Below are positions 2,547 through 40,862 of a DNA stretch of 50,986 nt, one piece after another. Every line of letters begins with the position of its first letter. Within the stretch, counting starts at the first letter, position 1. The notes under the pieces were generated by a model. The model saw only the letters and a program-made list of their open reading frames with translations. It was not told the origin of the DNA and did no database searches. The DNA lies in NCBI GenBank assembly GCA_034722035.1, contig JAYENK010000014.1, positions 1-50,986 on the forward strand, written 5' to 3'. Position numbers and translations under genes: made by a program. The DNA comes from Patescibacteria group bacterium (GTDB lineage Bacteria; Patescibacteriota; Patescibacteriia; Patescibacteriales; UBA12075).

Positions 2547-4337
2547 CTACACTTTTATTACAACCGGCAATACCATCGGTCGTCTTTTGGTTTTAATAAA
2601 TAAAAATTTGCCAATTTCATTACGAATTTTATTTTTGATATGATCTGTATCAGCTGACGTGCGTGAATCGTAATCTTTCACGATTTTTTTTATTTTTTTA
2701 CGCGTGTCCTCAATTAAAGCTCGGTTTTCTTTCATATAAACAAAACCGCGAGAAATAATATCCGGGTTTCCAATCGGTTCCCCAGTCTTGGAGTCAATTG
2801 TAGTAATTGCCACAATCATTCCGTCTTCTGCCATAACGCGCCTGTCTCGTAAAACAATATTACTTACATCTCCAACCCCAAGTCCGTCTACCATTACATA
2901 GTCGGACAAAACTTTTTCTTTACTCAATTTTCCAACTAAATTATTGCCTTGCTTGGAAAATTCCAGCACTTGACCATTATCCGGCACAAAAATATTTTCC
3001 TCCGGAATTCCAACCTGTATCGCTAAATCCGCGTGCGCTTGCAACATATAATGACTACCCTCAATTGGCACAAAGAATTTTGGTTTGAGCAAGCGCATCA
3101 TCAGCTTAAGATCTTCTTGCTTGGCATGACCACCGGCATGAACATCCATCATTTTGTAATGGACTATTCGCGCTCCTTGTCGTACCACCATATCTTTAAG
3201 TGCTTGAATACTGCGTTCATTGCCGGGAATAACCGAAGAAGAAAAAATTACCGTGTCGCCCTTTTTAAGCTGGATTGTTTTGTGTTCTCGGCTCACCACT
3301 CTTCTGAGAAAAGCATTGCTCTCACCTTGAGCGCCGGTACCAAGAATCATTACTTTATTGTCGGGTAATCGCTTTAAGTCGGCATCACGAATCAAAAGAT
3401 TTGGGCTAAATTTTAAATAGCCGATTTTATGAGCAATTTCAACGTTGTTATTCATACTCCGTCCTTGTAGATATATTTTACGGTTATGTTTTTTGGCTAT
3501 ATCAAAGATTTTTTGAATACGGCTAAGCTGACTGGCAAAAGTACCGATAATAATTCGACCTTGCAGATTTTCAAAAATGCGGTCAATTTCGTCGCCAATG
3601 GTCGACTCGGATAATTGATAACCGGGACTGTTTGAGTCAGTCGAATCAGACATCATTAATTCAACCCCGCGACTGCCCAAAAGAGCAATTCGATTTAAAT
3701 CGGCCGGTTTGTCATTTACCGGCGAATAATCAATTTTAAAATCGCCGGTATGAACAATTGTACCGATTGGAGTTTTAACAATAACCGCAAAAGAATCTGG
3801 AATAGAATGGTTTACTCGTAAAAATTCCACTTGTAAGCTACGACCAATTTTAACTCTTTTGGTGTCGTTAATTTCAGCAATATTCAACTGGGGACATTTT
3901 TGATATTCTTCACAGCGCTTACGAATAAGGCCAGCGGTTAATTTTCCGGTATAAAGCGGTGGATTGCCGATTTTACCCATAATATGCGGGATTGCTCCAA
4001 TATGGTCCATGTGTCCATGCGTAATAACCACGCCTTTAACCCAATCGATTTTATTCTCCAAATAGTTTATATTGGGAATAATATAATCAATCCCGGGCAT
4101 ATCTTCTTCCGGAAATTGTAAACCCATATCAATTATCATAATTTCTTTGTCGTATTCGATCAAAGTCATGTTGCGTCCGACTTCTTCTAATCCGCCTAAA
4201 ACAATTACCCGTAATTTCCCTTCTTGGAATACGGTTTTTGTCTTCGTTGGTTTTTTGTATGTTTGTGTGCTTCGATTTTCAGGTGCCTGCTTAGCAGCCC
4301 CCCCGAATCGAGCTTTTGGTTTATAAGTTCTAATCAT
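2547..4337 (-). CDS. rnj: Ribonuclease J (metallo-beta-lactamase / beta-CASP RNase) with a basic N-terminal extension
   Basis: 596 aa. It has the THGHMDHIGAIPH metallo-beta-lactamase motif, the overall RNase J pattern (LGGLEEVGRNM ... GDFKID ... HxSGH-like HAGGHAKQEDL) and the C-terminal domain. Confidence 0.9.
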   Translation of the reverse strand: MIRTYKPKARFGGAAKQAPENRSTQTYKKPTKTKTVFQEGKLRVIVLGGLEEVGRNMTLIEYDKEIMIIDMGLQFPEEDMPGIDYIIPNINYLENKIDWVKGVVITHGHMDHIGAIPHIMGKIGNPPLYTGKLTAGLIRKRCEEYQKCPQLNIAEINDTKRVKIGRSLQVEFLRVNHSIPDSFAVIVKTPIGTIVHTGDFKIDYSPVNDKPADLNRIALLGSRGVELMMSDSTDSNSPGYQLSESTIGDEIDRIFENLQGRIIIGTFASQLSRIQKIFDIAKKHNRKIYLQGRSMNNNVEIAHKIGYLKFSPNLLIRDADLKRLPDNKVMILGTGAQGESNAFLRRVVSREHKTIQLKKGDTVIFSSSVIPGNERSIQALKDMVVRQGARIVHYKMMDVHAGGHAKQEDLKLMMRLLKPKFFVPIEGSHYMLQAHADLAIQVGIPEENIFVPDNGQVLEFSKQGNNLVGKLSKEKVLSDYVMVDGLGVGDVSNIVLRDRRVMAEDGMIVAITTIDSKTGEPIGNPDIISRGFVYMKENRALIEDTRKKIKKIVKDYDSRTSADTDHIKNKIRNEIGKFLFIKTKRRPMVLPVVIKV

Positions 4338-20415: not shown

Positions 20416-20444
20416 TTGACATAATTTAGAAAATTATATATCAT
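20416..20444 (+). promoter_or_regulatory. Candidate strong promoter in the rRNA leader region
   Basis: TTGACA (20416-20421), 17 nt, TATCAT (20439-20444). Confidence 0.45.
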
Positions 20445-20552
20445 ACACTTACGTTAAATAAATGTTAAAGCATCAGAAAATAACATATGAAAAAGAAAAT
20501 AACTTCTCATATTGCAAGCGGTTGATGAAACGCCTTTTTGTGGCTTTGCCTG

Positions 20553-20574
20553 ACCGCTCTAGAGCGGTTTTTTT
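20553..20574 (+). terminator. Intrinsic-terminator-like hairpin about 110 nt downstream of the promoter at 20416
   Basis: ACCGCTCTAGAGCGGT is a GC-rich palindrome followed by TTTTTTT. Confidence 0.45.
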
Positions 20575-20591
20575 GATGCCAATTATCGACT

Positions 20592-20660
20592 AGTTGACAA
20601 TTAACAATTAACAATTAATCAGTGGTTAATAGTCAATTGTTAACTGTTAAAAGTTAAACC
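20592..20660. repeat. Heptad-repeat hairpin in the 23S leader, same family as the 23S insertions
   Basis: The 5' arm TGACAAT TAACAAT TAACAAT TAATCAG is followed by the complementary arm TTAATAGTCAATTGTTAACTGTTAAAAGTTAA. Confidence 0.6.
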
Positions 20661-21497
20661 TGAACATTAACAATTAAATATAGTTTTATTCATAAAACAT
20701 CTGACGAGCGTTTTATGGATAAAATCTTTTCAAGATTAATAAGTGAAAAGAGCATCAACAAAATTTCGTCGATAATTTATTATCGAACTTTTGCGTTTTT
20801 AGAATCTATTTGATTTCAAAAACGTGGGAAAATCTCGTAAGAGTATATGGTGGATGCCTTGACACAAGAAGACGATGAAGGACGTAGCAGCCTGCGATAA
20901 GCCTTGGTGAGGTGGCAAGCAACCTTTGAACCAGGGATTTCCGAATGGGGAAACCCGCCTAGTTGAAGACTGGGCTCCCGCTAAGTGAATATATAGCTTA
21001 GTGAGGGGACAACCCGGCGAATTGAAACATCTTAGTAGCCGGAGGAAAAGAAAAAAAATATTTATTCCGTAAGTAGCGGCGAGCGAAAGCGGATCAGCCT
21101 AAACCGTTTAAACTGCGCTTGGTTTTATCTTCGGGTAAAACCTTGCAAAAGGCTCCAGAGCCATATGTTTTTTTGGTGTTGTAAGATTATTGCATTCTCT
21201 TTCTGGATTAAGAGAGGTAAGGTTTACGAATTATTACTTCCCTAGTTGAAGCGAGCTGGAAAGCTCCGCCAGAGAAGGTGAAAGCCCTGTAAGGCGAAAG
21301 GGGTAATTACTTTACTGCAATAATTCTTGAGTACCGCGGAACCCGTGAAATTCCGTGGGAATCCGGGACGACTATGTCCCAAGGCTAAATACTTCTTGTG
21401 ATCGATAGCGAACTAGTACCGTGAGGGAAAGGTGAAAAGCATCCCGGTAAGGGAGGTGAAATAGTACCTGAAACCATATACTTACAAGGAATCAGAG

Positions 21498-21609
21498 CTT
21501 CGCTGCCGCTTCGCTAACAATTGACAATTAACAATTAACAATTGACAATTAACTATTCAGTTAAAAGTCAATTGTCAAAAGTCAAGTGTTCACGAAGCGA
21601 CAGCGTAGT
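21498..21609 (+). repeat. Insertion/expansion hairpin in 23S domain I (helix 25 position), with an AT-rich heptad core
   Basis: It lies between the conserved GAAACCATATACTTACAAGGAATCAGAGC and GTGATGGTGTGCCTATTGAAGAATGAGCC. The GC-rich base CGCTGCCGCTTCG/CGAAGCGACAGCG carries the arm TAACAAT TGACAAT TAACAAT TAACAAT TGACAAT TAACTAT and its complement. E. coli has about 12 nt at this position (from memory). Confidence 0.75.
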
Positions 21610-22774
21610 GATGGTGTGCCTATTGAAGAATGAGCCAACGAGTTAGTTCTATGTGGCCTAGCTAAGCCCCGCTTGGGGTGGAGCTGTAGTGAAAGCGAGG
21701 GTTAATAGCCCGATTAAGTCGCATGGACTAGACCCGAAGCCGAGTGATCTAGCCATGGCCAGGTTGAAACCCCAAGAAGTTGGGGTGGAGGACCGCACCC
21801 ACTGATCGTGCAATATCAGGGGATGAGCTGTGGCTAGCGGAGAAATTCTAATCGAACTCGGCAATAGCTGGTTCTCCTCGAAATAGCTTTAGGGCTAGCG
21901 TTGGATGCTGACTACTGGGGGTAGAGCACTGAATGAGATAAGGATCCATACGGATACCTTTCTTAACCAAACTCCGAATACCAGTAGGTGTAGTCCGGCA
22001 GTTAGACTATGGGGGCTAAGCTCCATCAGTCGAAAGGGAAACAGCCCAGACCGCCGTCTAAGGTCCCTAAATATATGCTAAGTGTGAAAGGTGGTGTCGC
22101 GACTGCGACAACTAGGAGGTTGGCTTAGAAGCAGCCATCCTTTAAAGAAAGCGTAATAGCTCACTAGTCAAGTTACCGCGCGCCGAAAATGTATCGGGGC
22201 TAAGCATATTACCGAAGACGCGGGCTCTCTAGTTTACTAGAGAGCGGTAGAGGAGCGTTCTTATTGCGTTGAAGCTGAGTCGTGAGGCTTGGTGGAGCGA
22301 TGAGAAGTGAGAATGTTGGCATGAGTAGCAAAAAGGCGGGTGAGAACCCCGCCCACCGCAAGCCTCAGGGTTCCTGGGCAACGTAAATCGACCCAGGGTT
22401 AGTCGGTCCTAAGACGAGGTCCGTGTAGTGCGGGCGTAGCCGATGGAAGAGCTGGTTAATATTCCAGCACTACTTATAGTTTCCGATGGGGGGACGTAAA
22501 ATAAAAACTGGAGCGGGTATTGGTTTGCCCGTTGCTGGTCAAGACTCGAGTCCAGGTAAATCCGGATTCGCAAGAGTCAAGATTGGCAGAAGATGAAGCT
22601 TTTGTGGATTCAATTTCGGAGGATATTTTATCGAGAAAAACCTCTAGGGCTAAGCTATAAGCAACCGTACCGCAAACCGACACAGGTAGGCGAGGCGAGT
22701 AGCCTCAGGTGTACGAGAGAACCCTCGTTAAGGAACTAGGCAAAATAGCGGCCGTAATTTCGAGATAAGGCCTG

Positions 22775-22887
22775 CCCGGGTTCAACATTTAACCATTAAC
22801 TTTTAACAGTTAACTTATAATTATAAATTATTTAATTTATAAATAGTTAATAGTTAATTTTGTTAATTGTTAAATGTTGAATCTGGG
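22775..22887 (+). repeat. AT-rich hairpin replacing or extending the variable helix in 23S domain IV (helix 63 position)
   Basis: It lies between the conserved GGCAAAATAGCGGCCGTAATTTCGAGATAAGGCCTGC and CGACTGTTTATCAAAAACACAG. The base CCCGGGTTCAACATTT/AAATGTTGAATCTGGG carries arms made of NTTAACN heptads. Confidence 0.7.
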
Positions 22888-23005
22888 CCGCAGCTAAAGA
22901 CGCCCCAACGACTGTTTATCAAAAACACAGTTCCCTGCTAACTCGAAAGAGGATGTATAGGGGGTGACGCCTGGCCAGTGTCCGAACGTTAAGGGGATGG
23001 GTTAG

Positions 23006-23145
23006 TGCTTCGCTTACGCTCAGCAACTTTTAACAGTTGACAATTAACAGTTAACAAATTAAGGAATTATTTAATAAATTTATTTCTTAATTATGTTAAT
23101 AGTTAAAAGTTAATTGTTAATTGTTTGCGGAGCGTAAGCGGAGCA
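23006..23145 (+). repeat. 140-nt hairpin insertion in 23S domain IV (the position of the short GCGCAAGCGAAGC hairpin of E. coli)
   Basis: The base TGCTTCGCTTACGCTCAGC/GCGGAGCGTAAGCGGAGCA carries arms TTAACAG TTGACAA TTAACAG TTAACAA and their complement. The flanks GGGATGGGTTAG and GAAGCCTTGAACTGAAGCGCGGATGAACGCCGGCGATAACTATAA are conserved 23S sequence. Confidence 0.75.
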
Positions 23146-23788
23146 TGAAGCCTTGAACTGAAGCGCGGATGAACGCCGGCGATAACTATAATCGTCCTAA
23201 GGTAGCGAAATTCCTTGTCGGCTAATTACCGACCTGCACGAATGGCGTAACGATTGGGGCACTGTCTCAACGAGGGACTCGGCGAAATTGCAAGACGAGT
23301 AAAGATGCTCGTTAACCGTAGTCGGACGAAAAGACCCCGTGAAGCTTTACTACAGCTTGACATTGGCTTATGACTATATTTGTTCAGTATAGGTGGGAGA
23401 TCTTCGGATCGCCAGTGAGATACCACCCTTGTATATTTGTAATTCTAACCCTAGGCCTTGAATCAGGTCGGGGGACAGTGTTTGGCGGGTAGTTTGTCTG
23501 GGGCGGATGCCTCCCAAAGAGTAACGGAGGCGTTTACAAAGGTTGGCTATCCCGGAATGGAAACCCGGGAGATAGTGCAAGGGCACAAGCCAGCTTTACT
23601 GCAAGACCTACAAGTCGAGCAGTCACGAAAGTGGAACCTAGTGATCCGACCGTCCAATATAGGATGGCGGAAGCTCATCGGATAAAAGCTACTCCGGGGA
23701 TAACAGGCTAGTCGCGCCCAAGCGTCCACAGCGACGGCGCGGTTCGGCACCTCGATGTCGGCTCGTCTCATCCTGGGGGTGAAGAAGC

Positions 23789-23819
<31 letters not shown>

Positions 23820-23845
23820 AGGCACGCGAGCTGGGTTCAGACCGT

Positions 23846-24581
23846 CAAGAAATTGAAAATTTTCGATTTTTTGACCATCTGAACCCTTAAAGACAAAAAT
23901 ACGGCGGCCTTCACGAGTAATCGTGATTGAAAGAAGCTGACTCATATCGATGAAGTCCTAACTTGAATAATAACCTGTCATGTGTTAGGATAATATCGAG
24001 GGAAGTCGCTTATGCAAAATAAAAAATCAAACATCCAAGCAGCATATTTAGCCGGTTTTTTAGATGGAGACGGCAGTATATATGTAAGAGCAAAATCAGA
24101 TTCTACTTATAAGTATGGATTCCAAATTGCTCCATATATTGTTTTCTTTCAGTCTAAAAAAGAAGAAGATAATTTTAGAAAAATTTTTTCTAATATTAAT
24201 TATGGTTATATGCGAACACGCAAAGATGGAATACTTGAGTATACGATTGGACGAAAAAAGGATATTATTTCTTTGATTAATTTAATAAAACCTTATTTAA
24301 TATTAAAAATAAGGCAAGCAGATTTAATTATAGAAATATTAAATAAGAAAGAGAAAGTTAAAAATATTAAAGACTTTCAGAAACTATTAGATTTAGTTGA
24401 TAAATTTAGAGAATTAAATTATTCCAAGAAGCGTAAAAAGCATAAGTTGACCCTTTAGAGACTGATCCCATATTTGGGAGAGGATGGCGTGTAATATGCG
24501 CTATCAAAACGTTAGCCCCCTATATAGATTTTTATAGGGTGAAGGTATAGTCCATGCATTTGGTAACAAGTGATTAACATG
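23846..24581 (+). mobile_element. Group I intron in 23S rRNA at the I-CreI-type site (E. coli ~2593), carrying a homing endonuclease ORF
   Basis: The conserved exon sequence GCTGGGTTCAGACCGT stops at 23845 and resumes as CGTAAGACAGGTCGGTCTCTATC at 24582. Joined, these give ACCGTCGTAAGACAGGTCGG, equivalent to E. coli AACGTCGTGAGACAGTTCGG. The 5' exon ends in T and the intron ends in G, as in group I introns. The 736 nt between them contain the LAGLIDADG ORF. Confidence 0.85.
24012..24458 (+). CDS. Single-motif LAGLIDADG homing endonuclease (I-CreI-like), intron-encoded
   Basis: 148 aa. AAYLAGFLDGDGSIYVRAK aligns with I-CreI LLYLAGFVDGDGSIIAQIK. Size and downstream blocks (KPYLILKIRQADL vs QPFLKLKQKQANL) also match. 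Confidence 0.9.
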   Translation: MQNKKSNIQAAYLAGFLDGDGSIYVRAKSDSTYKYGFQIAPYIVFFQSKKEEDNFRKIFSNINYGYMRTRKDGILEYTIGRKKDIISLINLIKPYLILKIRQADLIIEILNKKEKVKNIKDFQKLLDLVDKFRELNYSKKRKKHKLTL

Positions 24582-24882
24582 CGTAAGACAGGTCGGTCTC
24601 TATCCACTACGGTCGTGGAAACTTGAGGAGGCCCTTTCCTAGTACGAGAGGACCGGAAAGGACGAAGCTCTAGTGTACCGGCTGTCCCACCAGGGGCATT
24701 GCCGGGTAGCTACCTTCGGTTTGGATAAGCGCTGAAAGCATATAAGCGCGAAGCCGTCTCCAAGATAAGGTTTCGTTATGAGGTCCGCGGGAGACTACCG
24801 CGTTGATAGGCTCTACGTGTAAGCACAGTAATGTGTTGAGCGGAGGAGTACTAATCGACCCATGATTTTCCCACATTTTTGA

Positions 24883-24934
24883 TGTTATCACCCTTCGGGT
24901 GAGCCCTTCTACAAATAGGGCACATGCGAATGAG
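24883..24934 (+). repeat. Dispersed repeat copy U1 (23S-5S spacer)
   Basis: TGTTATCACCCTTCGGGTGAGCCCTTCTACAAATAGGGCACATGCGAATGAG is related to the copies at 25009, 40587 and 41067 (those three in the opposite orientation). Confidence 0.75.
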
Positions 24935-25008
24935 TGATAAATATAGTTATTACTATATTTAAATAGATTAGTGTTACTTTTTACTTTATCAAGATTAGAT
25001 ATACTTTT

Positions 25009-25058
25009 GGTATTCGCATGTCTCGTATTCGTAGTGCGGGTCAGCGAAGTTGATAACA
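25009..25058 (-). repeat. Dispersed repeat copy U2, inverted relative to U1
   Basis: The reverse complement TGTTATCAACTTCGCTGACCCGCACTACGAATACGAGACATGCGAATACC aligns with U1 over its full length. U1 and U2 bracket an 74-nt AT-rich segment. Confidence 0.75.
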
Positions 25059-25072
25059 TAAAAACTCCACAA

Positions 25073-25188
25073 TTCTGGTGGTTTTAGCGGAGGGGGTACA
25101 CCTGTTCCCATCTTGAACACAGTAGTTAAGCCCTCCAGCGCTGATGATACTTGGGTTTTAACCCTGGAAAAGTAAGTCACCGCCAGAA
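25073..25188 (+). rRNA. rrf: 5S rRNA
   Basis: TTCTGGTGGTTTTAGCGGAGGGGGTACACCTGTTCCCATCTTGAACACAGTAGTTAAGCCCTCCAGCGCTGATGATACTTGGG...CCGCCAGAA shows helix I pairing and the conserved CCCATC..GAAC.C.G.AGTTAAGC block. An extra 12-bp extension AAAACTCCACAA/TTGTGGAGTTTT flanks it and ends in a T-run. Confidence 0.9.
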
Positions 25189-25212
25189 TTGTGGAGTTTT
25201 TTTATTTTGAAC

Positions 25213-40664: not shown

Positions 40665-40725
40665 TAATATTGCAAAAAATTTTACTCTTTTTGTGACAAT
40701 AAAGTAATATAATTAATTTTAATAT

Positions 40726-40805
40726 ATTATAATATAATATAGATAATTATAATATAATATAGATAATTATAATATAATATAGATAATTATAATATAATAT
40801 GATTA
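40726..40805. repeat. Tandem repeat, 20-nt unit AGATAATTATAATATAATAT x3 plus partial copies
   Basis: Identical units lie at 40741-40760, 40761-40780 and 40781-40800, flanked by partial copies. Each unit contains TATAAT. Confidence 0.85.
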
Positions 40806-40862
40806 ATAATAATAGTGTATTATAGTATTTAGTTAAATATAGAGAATTGTGGATAACAAAGC

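Follow-up and report, generated by a model that had tools for sequence, protein, structure and literature searches.

The 50,986-nt contig JAYENK010000014.1 (assembly GCA_034722035.1) from a Patescibacteria group bacterium, here called the window in the sense of the whole stretch of DNA that was analysed, contained genes for the 23S and 5S rRNAs and no gene for the 16S rRNA according to Rfam, which makes this an unlinked 23S-5S operon. The 23S rRNA gene and its leader harbored four long, AT-rich hairpins, the arms of which are built from 7-nt repeats (heptads) of the type TTRACAN. One of these hairpins was located in the leader, whereas alignment with MAFFT to E. coli rrlH fixed the other three as insertions at the tips of helices H25, H63, and H68 of the 23S rRNA (Table 1). 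The four hairpins had been proposed in a first-pass annotation made from the sequence of the window, along with an alignment of this kind, and all of them were found where it had placed them to within 1 to 2 nt.

Table 1. Positions in the window of the hairpins, the rRNA genes, and other features of the operon.
Feature	Position	Strand	Remarks
Sigma-70-like promoter	20416-20444		TTGACA-17-TATCAT, upstream of the mini-ORF
Leader mini-ORF	20487-20525		MKKKITSHIASG followed by a stop codon
Intrinsic terminator	20552-20569		followed by a T run
Leader hairpin	20592..20660	+	5' arm TTGACAA TTAACAA TTAACAA TTAATCA, 3' arm complementary
boxA-like element	20662..20675	+	GAACATTAACAATT, directly after the leader hairpin
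23S processing stem, 19 nt	20816-20834 / 24864-24882		brackets the gene; inverted repeat I25
23S rRNA gene	20831..~24875	+	host of the hairpins; Rfam LSU_rRNA_bacteria; interrupted at 23848-24586
Extra sequence in domain I, ~120 nt	21108-21227		near E. coli 277
H25 insertion	21499..21608	+	E. coli ~546
H63 insertion	22777..22886	+	replaces E. coli 1707-1751
H68 insertion	23006..23145	+	E. coli ~1870
Intron-like insertion, 739 nt	23848-24586		model position 2621/2622, ~E. coli 2593; LAGLIDADG ORF
LAGLIDADG_1 ORF, 148 aa	24012-24458		inside the 739-nt insertion
5S rRNA	25074-25188		Rfam
5S processing stem, 34 nt	25049-25082 / 25179-25212		85% complementary

In the H25 insertion, an 18-nt GC clamp led into 6 TTRACAA heptads, a loop, and heptads complementary to the first ones. 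The H68 insertion had a 17-bp GC clamp homologous to that of H25, then TTAACAG/TTGACAA heptads, and finally an AT-only apex. The leader hairpin was located between a terminator-like hairpin and boxA, just 5' of the latter. The H63 insertion was the least typical of the four, in that it lacked a GC clamp and had TTAACNN units and an AT-only apex. In the H63 and H68 hairpins, the apical third of each contained A and T only and was not made of TTRAC repeats. Thus, of the design that the first-pass annotation had ascribed to all four, a GC-rich base with heptad arms, the heptads were shared by the leader, H25, and H68 hairpins and the GC-rich base by those in H25 and H68, whereas the H63 hairpin conformed only loosely. 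Tandem Repeats Finder detected a period of 7, 14, or 21 in every arm. Each element was predicted to fold into a single long hairpin, with free energies for the leader, H25, H63, and H68 hairpins of -18.8, -47.6, -49.6, and -66.4 kcal/mol, and z-scores relative to dinucleotide shuffles of -3.9, -8.3, -9.3, and -12.4, respectively. The GC content of the hairpins was 19% to 36%, as compared with 37% for the AT-rich genome. A group I intron nature of the hairpins was ruled out, since they are simple stem-loops without open reading frames (ORFs), and the only intron-like insertion is the 739-nt element in Table 1.

The motif TTRACANTTRACANTTRACA, corresponding to 3 consecutive TTRACAN units, was matched 19 times in the window with a maximum of 2 mismatches, and every match was located inside one of the four hairpins, on the plus strand in the 5' arms and on the minus strand in the 3' arms. 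The number expected by shuffling was 0.11, and none of 100 shuffles reached 19. Furthermore, the H25 and H68 insertions shared a GC-rich clamp, GCTTCGCTnnCGCTTCGC[T/A]AAC ... GCGnAGCGnnAGCG, in the window as well as in L123 and L227 (L-numbers denote related loci, X-numbers sequencing runs, and WIN the window), and the arms of the H68 hairpin were 80% complementary to the 5' arm of the H25 hairpin across 51 nt (inverted repeat I1). Logan contigs from four brine-metagenome runs matched the H63 and H68 hairpins with 0 to 1 differences, and the leader hairpin was recovered independently in runs X1 and X2; the hairpins are therefore not assembly artefacts.

Metagenome contigs were scanned with a 21-nt clade-specific word of the 23S rRNA gene located just 5' of H25, which yielded 120 loci, and the clade comparison set comprised 123 sequences. 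The intervals between flanking anchors were mostly 29 to 33 nt for H25, 41 to 43 nt for H45, 38 to 40 nt for H63, and 33 to 35 nt for H68 in the clade, as compared with 128, 41, 138, and 165 nt in the window. The hairpins are thus not ordinary variable helices of normal length, a possibility that the first-pass annotation had allowed for. Instead of the 110 to 140 nt seen in the window, the native tips in relatives were about 10 nt long (CCCGCAAGGGG, CCAGCAATGGG, CACTTCGGTG), with CCCGCAAGGGG as the tip of H25, about 11 nt in H63, and a C(UUCG)G hairpin in H68.

Long insertions in at least one of H25, H45, H63, and H68 were identified in about 25 of the 123 clade sequences. They were concentrated in the subclade of the window, within which their distribution was mosaic. 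The strongest autocorrelation was at lag 7 or 14 in most of them, and the sequence of the heptad varied. Heptads of the type TTAACAN were found in WIN, L123, L209, the H25 insertions of L140 and L206, and the H25 and H68 insertions of L227. Heptads of the type AATTTCT or AAATnnC were found in L131/L178, L151, L165, and L193, in the H45, H63, and H68 insertions of L140, and in the H45 and H63 insertions of L206, and heptads of the type TCGGATn were found in the H63 insertions of L227/L234, while L207 and L213 had a unit of 9 nt. The close relative L125 contained AATTTAT heptads in H25. The AAAT-type modules terminated in palindromic GC-rich 15- to 17-mers. L123, from a Candidatus Parcubacteria assembly, had a 23S core 81% to 87% identical to that of the window and contained hairpins of the window family in the leader, H25, H63, and H68, plus one more in H45; insertions in H45 were also present in L140, L151, and L206. 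The leaders of L123/L124, L125, and L144 had homologous hairpins at the corresponding position. The search of related genomes suggested in the first-pass annotation thus recovered homologous TTAAC hairpins at the same sites in some relatives and heptads of unrelated sequence in others. Across the clade, it is the overall design that is conserved, namely a hairpin at a helix tip whose arms have a 7-nt period, and the TTAAC family represents one lineage of this design.

Within the 845 kb of clade DNA, all 24 arrays of at least 3 TTRACNN units were located in the 23S leader, H25, H63, H68, or the 23S-5S spacer. The spacer copy was found in L206, in the form of a TTAAC-type hairpin at positions 4031-4112. 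No TTRACNN x3 array was detected in 544 kb of other clade DNA or elsewhere in the window, and no heptad array of any kind was found outside the operon in the window. Heptad arrays of other sequence were present outside rRNA genes in relatives, some of them as intergenic hairpins; in L123, for example, such hairpins flanked ruvC on both sides (2000-2065 and 2525-2590). When 185,579 species genomes were scanned for (TTRACAN)4, at least 120 unrelated microsatellite loci were obtained, mainly in filamentous cyanobacteria, Bacteroidota, and Clostridia; among the matches listed, none was located in a 23S rRNA gene, none showed homology to the 23S beyond the repeat, and none came from a relative of the window organism. 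The heptad itself is therefore not special.

The H25 insertions of five genomes (WIN, L123, L140, L206, and L227) were 80% to 86% identical in pairwise comparisons, and the H68 insertion was 71% to 75% identical to its orthologs in L123 and L227/L234, while identities between H25 and H68 were 75% to 77%, as compared with a background of about 55% to 60% for AT-rich hairpins of this kind. The H63 insertion had an ortholog in L123 with 78% identity, and the H25 insertion of L209 belonged to the H63 type. Similarity between paralogous copies was seen in other members of the clade as well: the H25 and H45 insertions of the L151 gene were 96% identical over 155 nt, and the H45, H63, and H68 insertions of L140 were mutual best matches. 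Moreover, several hairpins in both WIN and L206 contained the TTGAC variant of the heptad, which was absent from all hairpins of L123 and L227; this is the distribution expected if sequence is exchanged among the hairpins of an operon. The copies in the leader, H25, and H68 thus belong to one family, as the first-pass annotation had maintained, while the H63 copy is a looser relative.

The alignment of the five H25 orthologs supported a consensus hairpin of 46 base pairs, 8 of which were compensatory with both sides changed. The A/G of TTRAC covaried with the T/C of GTYAA on the opposite arm, and several G-U pairs were conserved. In 25 of 31 distinct insertions, the strand in the sense of the rRNA folded better than its complement, by a mean of -4.7 kcal/mol (Wilcoxon p = 0.001). 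The covariation and the folding bias of the sense strand both point to the transcript, and not a DNA cruciform, as the object of selection. These observations also bear on the possibility that AT-rich low-complexity sequence has converged by chance at helices that vary independently. Microsatellites of the type (TTRACAN)4 are indeed common in cyanobacteria, Bacteroidota, and Clostridia, and the genome is AT-rich. Yet the motif excess in the window (19 against 0.11 expected), the clamp common to H25 and H68, the covariation among orthologs, and the restriction of 24 of 24 arrays to the operon already contradict chance convergence, which we consider highly improbable.

Some of the changes had occurred between nearly identical strains. 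In the brine runs, the leader hairpin was identical to that of the window in X1 and exactly 7 nt, or one heptad, shorter in X2, while it was replaced by 9 unrelated letters (CGTTATTAA) in X3, in a contig whose flanks differed from the window at one position. L227 and L234 were identical over 3.4 kb including the H45, H63, and H68 insertions, with the exception of the H25 insertions, which were unrelated. Two more H25 alleles were identified in metatranscriptome contigs from the same lakes, one of which was a bare clamp with a UUCG loop, GAGCTTCGCT-TCG-GCGGAGTGA, and has the appearance of a starting point for growth of the long H25 hairpin.

The first-pass annotation had considered a small mobile palindromic element, and the turnover of the leader copy, the replacement of H25 alleles, the near-identical copies at two helices in L151, the sporadic distribution in the clade, and the palindromic ends of the AAAT-type modules are all compatible with an element acting at the DNA level and transposing into rRNA hairpin loops, in the manner of miniature inverted-repeat transposable elements (MITEs), repetitive extragenic palindromic (REP) sequences, or Rickettsia palindromic elements (RPEs). 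With these, the hairpins have in common that they are small palindromic modules able to sit in genes for structured RNAs or proteins. They differ in that the TTAAC type is undispersed, being confined to the operon, and lacks terminal inverted repeats with target duplications: no target-site duplication was observed at the L151 or window junctions, where the native tips were replaced rather than interrupted. In addition, the H25 copy is vertically inherited in six genomes, orthologs differ in heptad number, which fits growth in place, and no associated transposase was evident. We therefore regard transposition as an unlikely origin, although the near-identical copies, allele swaps, and leader turnover give this idea of the first-pass annotation partial support.

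Information about the fate of such insertions in RNA was obtained from lake-water metatranscriptomes, which carried an L227-like core at 100% identity. The H45 insertion of L227 is 113 nt long and not of the heptad type (3126-3257). Contigs stopped at positions 3125-3127 in runs X51, X55, X56, and X37, and in three runs the Illumina adapter followed directly after the stop point, at a depth of 560 to 1200. The depth was zero at positions 3130-3239, corresponding to about 110 nt, and resumed at 3241-3246. This pattern is the signature of excision without religation, and the 23S rRNA of an uncultured lake Patescibacterium is thus fragmented. For the heptad-type H45 hairpin of L140, one contig ended with the adapter at the base of the hairpin. 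The interiors of heptad hairpins had zero depth in all eight metatranscriptome runs examined, and no RNA contig from these runs contained one.

Our interpretation, to which we assign a probability of about 0.6, is that the hairpins are modules, similar in type to intervening sequences (IVSs), of the 23S operon of a Patescibacterium of the Candidate Phyla Radiation (CPR), and that they grow by slippage, are exchanged within the operon, and are probably excised. The hairpins would have started as UUCG-type tips that were extended through slippage or template switching, after which replication slippage of heptad units would lengthen, shorten, and diversify the arms, while compensatory changes would preserve the pairing under selection on the RNA in the rRNA sense. 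The modules at different sites would be paralogous, having been copied or exchanged inside the transcription unit through a process such as ectopic gene conversion or template switching, and it is such exchange that would explain why the four sites share one family. By analogy with the IVSs in H25 and H45, we also favor, with moderate confidence, that RNase III-type processing removes the long duplexes from the precursor without religation. The proposal in the first-pass annotation of a shared structure recognized by an RNase is plausible in this light, and an IVS nature of the RNase III type has been put forward for short insertions without ORFs at the H25 and H45 hot spots in the 23S genes of the CPR (PMC11270868). 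Excision would leave a fragmented and functional 23S rRNA, the pieces of which would be held together by the remaining structure, and the copies in the leader and in the L206 spacer would reside in regions that are discarded anyway. The interpretation predicts that the 23S rRNA would be split into as many as four pieces, including one of only about 120 nt.

Several observations weigh against this interpretation. The excised H45 insertion of L227 is not of the heptad type, and in the same metatranscriptomes H25, H63, and H68 are crossed at comparable depth by contigs in which these helices are short, so that the expressed strains may simply lack heptad hairpins. Adapter-ended contigs were also observed at one very abundant conserved position. 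The DNA of the window organism was found almost only in four runs of one brine-metagenome study, all of which are DNA, and RNA runs matched conserved words of the 23S gene only and not the window organism. A six-frame translation revealed no RNase III signature, which is uninformative as the search covered the 51-kb window alone. The model leaves the unit size of 7 nt unexplained, and part of the heptad pattern may reflect a general mutational habit, given the heptad arrays of other sequence outside rRNA genes in relatives and the (TTRACAN)4 arrays in unrelated phyla. Finally, H25 and H63 are sites that tolerate retained insertions in E. coli and eukaryotes (PMC2441807).

The last of these points leads to the alternative that the hairpins are retained expansion segments, which stay in the 23S rRNA, project from the surface of the 50S subunit, and evolve by slippage of the "cryptically simple" kind. 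Hancock and Dover reportedly described, in 1988 and 1990, cryptically simple expansion segments in eukaryotes with compensatory slippage and motifs shared between segments, and the sharing of simple motifs between insertions in the window resembles this situation. Retention also agrees with the selection on pairing at the RNA level and with the long maintenance of the H25 module. In E. coli, the 23S rRNA tolerates insertions in H25, H45, and H63, while none was recovered in H68, and H25 and H63 are the sites of the eukaryotic expansion segments ES7 and ES27, whereas the tip of H68 is neither a known tolerant site nor an expansion segment site (PMC2441807). What speaks against retention is furthermore that members of the same family occur in the leader and the 23S-5S spacer, outside the mature rRNA, that whole hairpins are gained or lost between near-identical strains, that no RNA contig contained a hairpin in eight metatranscriptomes with abundant related cores, and that a neighboring insertion in the clade, the one in H45 of L227, is excised. 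For these reasons, we consider retention less likely than excision.

Returning to the IVS-type interpretation, the closest known kind of element is the bacterial 23S IVS and, within the CPR, the short and so far uncharacterised hot-spot insertions. As in the published IVSs of Salmonella, Campylobacter, Coxiella, and Leptospira, among others (PMC2672173, PMC4990558, PMC11270868), the tip of a 23S helix is exchanged for an extended stem-loop. The classical sites H25 and H45 are both used in the clade, the occurrence is sporadic among close strains, as seen in the mosaic subclade, in L227/L234, and in the leaders in X1 to X3, and the H45 insertion of L227 is missing from the rRNA with discrete ends. 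Unlike bacterial IVSs, the hairpins of the clade are also found in H63 and H68, at up to four sites per gene with additional copies in the leader and spacer, and they have heptad arms, share sequence across helices, and contain no ORF; for the heptad type, excision is what we infer. Short non-intron insertions in CPR rRNA genes were reportedly described by Brown et al. in 2015. In the accessible part of Tsurumaki et al. (2024, PMC11270868), hot-spot insertions are very frequent in CPR 23S genes, short ORF-less insertions at 23IS2 and 23IS4 are proposed to be IVS-like, and LAGLIDADG introns are placed at position 2593, as in the window; that part does not describe repeat architecture, sharing between sites, copies in the leader or spacer, or polymorphism between strains.

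The resemblance to eukaryotic expansion segments comprises the sites (ES7 in H25, ES27 in H63), the shared simple repeats, and the maintenance of pairing as the length changes. Unlike these, the hairpins occur in a bacterium with a single gene copy, have a strict 7-nt unit, and are AT-rich rather than GC-rich, and their retention in the ribosome is putative. Cyanobacteria contain heptanucleotide tandem repeats, known as short tandemly repeated repetitive (STRR) sequences. These and other bacterial heptads are microsatellites of the same 7-nt kind, including units such as TTGACAG and TTAACAA, but unlike the window hairpins the STRR-type arrays among the matches listed were mostly one-armed and located outside rRNA genes. 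A literature search for heptad repeats in rRNA turned up nothing relevant. In CPR bacteria, genes for rRNA are known to be heavily interrupted, with the short ORF-less insertions as an uncharacterised remainder, and in one Parcubacteria-like clade these now appear as structured families with heptad arms, a clamp shared by H25 and H68, restriction to the 23S-5S operon, and probable exchange between helix tips. They represent a single-copy bacterial counterpart of the eukaryotic expansion segments in which simple sequences co-evolve, and offer a tractable and testable case for studying the growth of rRNA helices and its toleration or trimming.

The leader hairpin is followed by a boxA-like element, and the sequence CTTTAACAATT, with a maximum of 2 substitutions, was identified in 43 of 52 clade leaders, 70 to 280 nt upstream of the 23S gene. 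It was noted that CTTTAACAATT is very near the boxA of the E. coli rrn leader, TGCTCTTTAACAA, a similarity that is unexpected for such distant bacteria. The spacer boxA of E. coli, TGCTCTTTAAAAA, was visible in L001. The order of a hairpin and the boxA-like CTTTAACAATT resembles the boxB-boxA arrangement of rrn leaders, the window hairpin being located at the position of the E. coli boxB, whereas the heptads without GYUC, the dispensability of the hairpin in a sister strain, and the copies inside the 23S gene set it apart. The TTAACAA unit corresponds to the 3' half of boxA, and we therefore read this half as a possible seed of the repeat, such that the unit may have originated from the boxA core UUUAACAAUU.

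It is also conceivable that the heptads mimic boxA, in that the 5' arms, while single-stranded, transiently bind NusB/NusE and thereby reload or stabilize the antitermination complex on a long, AT-rich, and intron-bearing transcription unit. The heptad dimer ACAATTAACAATT is one base away from the boxA of the window, ACATTAACAATT, which adjoins the leader hairpin, and the TTAAC arrays are confined to the transcription unit. NusB/NusE, however, specifically recognize the 5' GYUC part of boxA. The heptads do not conform to the boxA consensus GYTCTTTAANA (PMC5725501), or GYUCUUUAANA in the RNA, of which only the UUAACAA part is matched and the 5' GYUC is absent. Moreover, the arms are paired in the stable fold, and relatives with unrelated heptads (AATTTCT, AAATAAC, TCGGATA) keep a normal boxA. 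Because of these genomes and the lack of GYUC, binding of Nus factors is a minority possibility, and we consider it improbable. Equally doubtful is a combination of the two ideas, in which the TTAACAA hairpins would be a boxA-derived, self-propagating module of the operon, with the 5' arms as Nus sites and the duplex as the RNase III cut site; if true, such a module would couple antitermination, folding order, and 23S fragmentation in one repeat unit.

The leader upstream of the hairpin has an architecture that was conserved between the window (20416-20576), L123, L125, L151, L128, L154, L190, L225, and about 20 other leaders. The promoter is followed by a mini-ORF of 12 to 14 codons in the clade, the peptides of which end in SG or KRF before the stop codon in relatives, and by the terminator, at a constant distance of 24 to 29 nt from the mini-ORF stop. 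The last codons of the mini-ORF with the stop codon (AGCGGTTGA) repeat the 3' arm of the terminator, so that base pairing with its 5' arm is possible. Of 33 distinct leaders, 15 had a 6-mer in the final 12 nt of the mini-ORF, counting the stop codon, that paired at 6 of 6 positions with the 5' arm of the terminator. The end of the mini-ORF covaried with the terminator stem in L164, where region 1, CGCGGT, equals the 3' arm, and more weakly in L215. Judged by sequence, the leader resembles an attenuator that senses translation, placed ahead of an rRNA gene. An Rfam search of the leader with a permissive threshold gave only noise far under the gathering scores and no match for an attenuator-like leader, and a literature search for leader-peptide control of rRNA operons found nothing relevant. 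Together with the link to boxA, the mini-ORF and terminator may indicate an unusual control of rRNA transcription in these minimal cells. The TTGACA hexamers in the repeats were also considered as promoters; promoter-like sites were no more common than in shuffled sequences (leader, 5 observed and 4.7 expected; gene, 4 observed and 2.5 expected), and this role was ruled out as there was no usable -10 partner.

The 23S rRNA gene of the window had been assigned an end at 23930 in the first-pass annotation, which is also where the Rfam match to the whole window stopped. When the subregion 23500-25060 was searched alone, the 23S match continued to 24862, and the end was corrected accordingly (Table 1); the false end is explained by the 739-nt insertion, which interrupts the gene. 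The LAGLIDADG_1 ORF within this insertion has a single domain. The Intron_gpI model gave no match at the gathering threshold in the window insertion, and L206 contained a match at the same site. The extra sequence in domain I consisted of two hairpins of normal GC content that are not heptad-like. Its conservation extended to L123 and L125, and it probably corresponds to retained expansions specific to the clade. The 5S rRNA gene was flanked by a processing stem of its own.

The gene for glycogen synthase upstream of the operon had its best matches in Candidatus Parcubacteria, Falkowbacteria, and Patescibacteria. The loci L123, L124, and L125 carried a 23S gene near this gene, whereas no 23S gene was found near it in L122, the glycogen synthase of which showed 71% identity. 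L122 contained a free-standing bAvd / 23S_rRNA_IVP (S23p-like) gene at positions 695-1045, located beside genes for glycogen metabolism and not within an rRNA gene. Finally, an AT-only tandem array was identified at positions 40705-40814 of the window, consisting of 4.4 copies of the 20-nt unit ATTATAATATAATATAGATA with 95% matches, which can also be read as 22 copies of TAATA.

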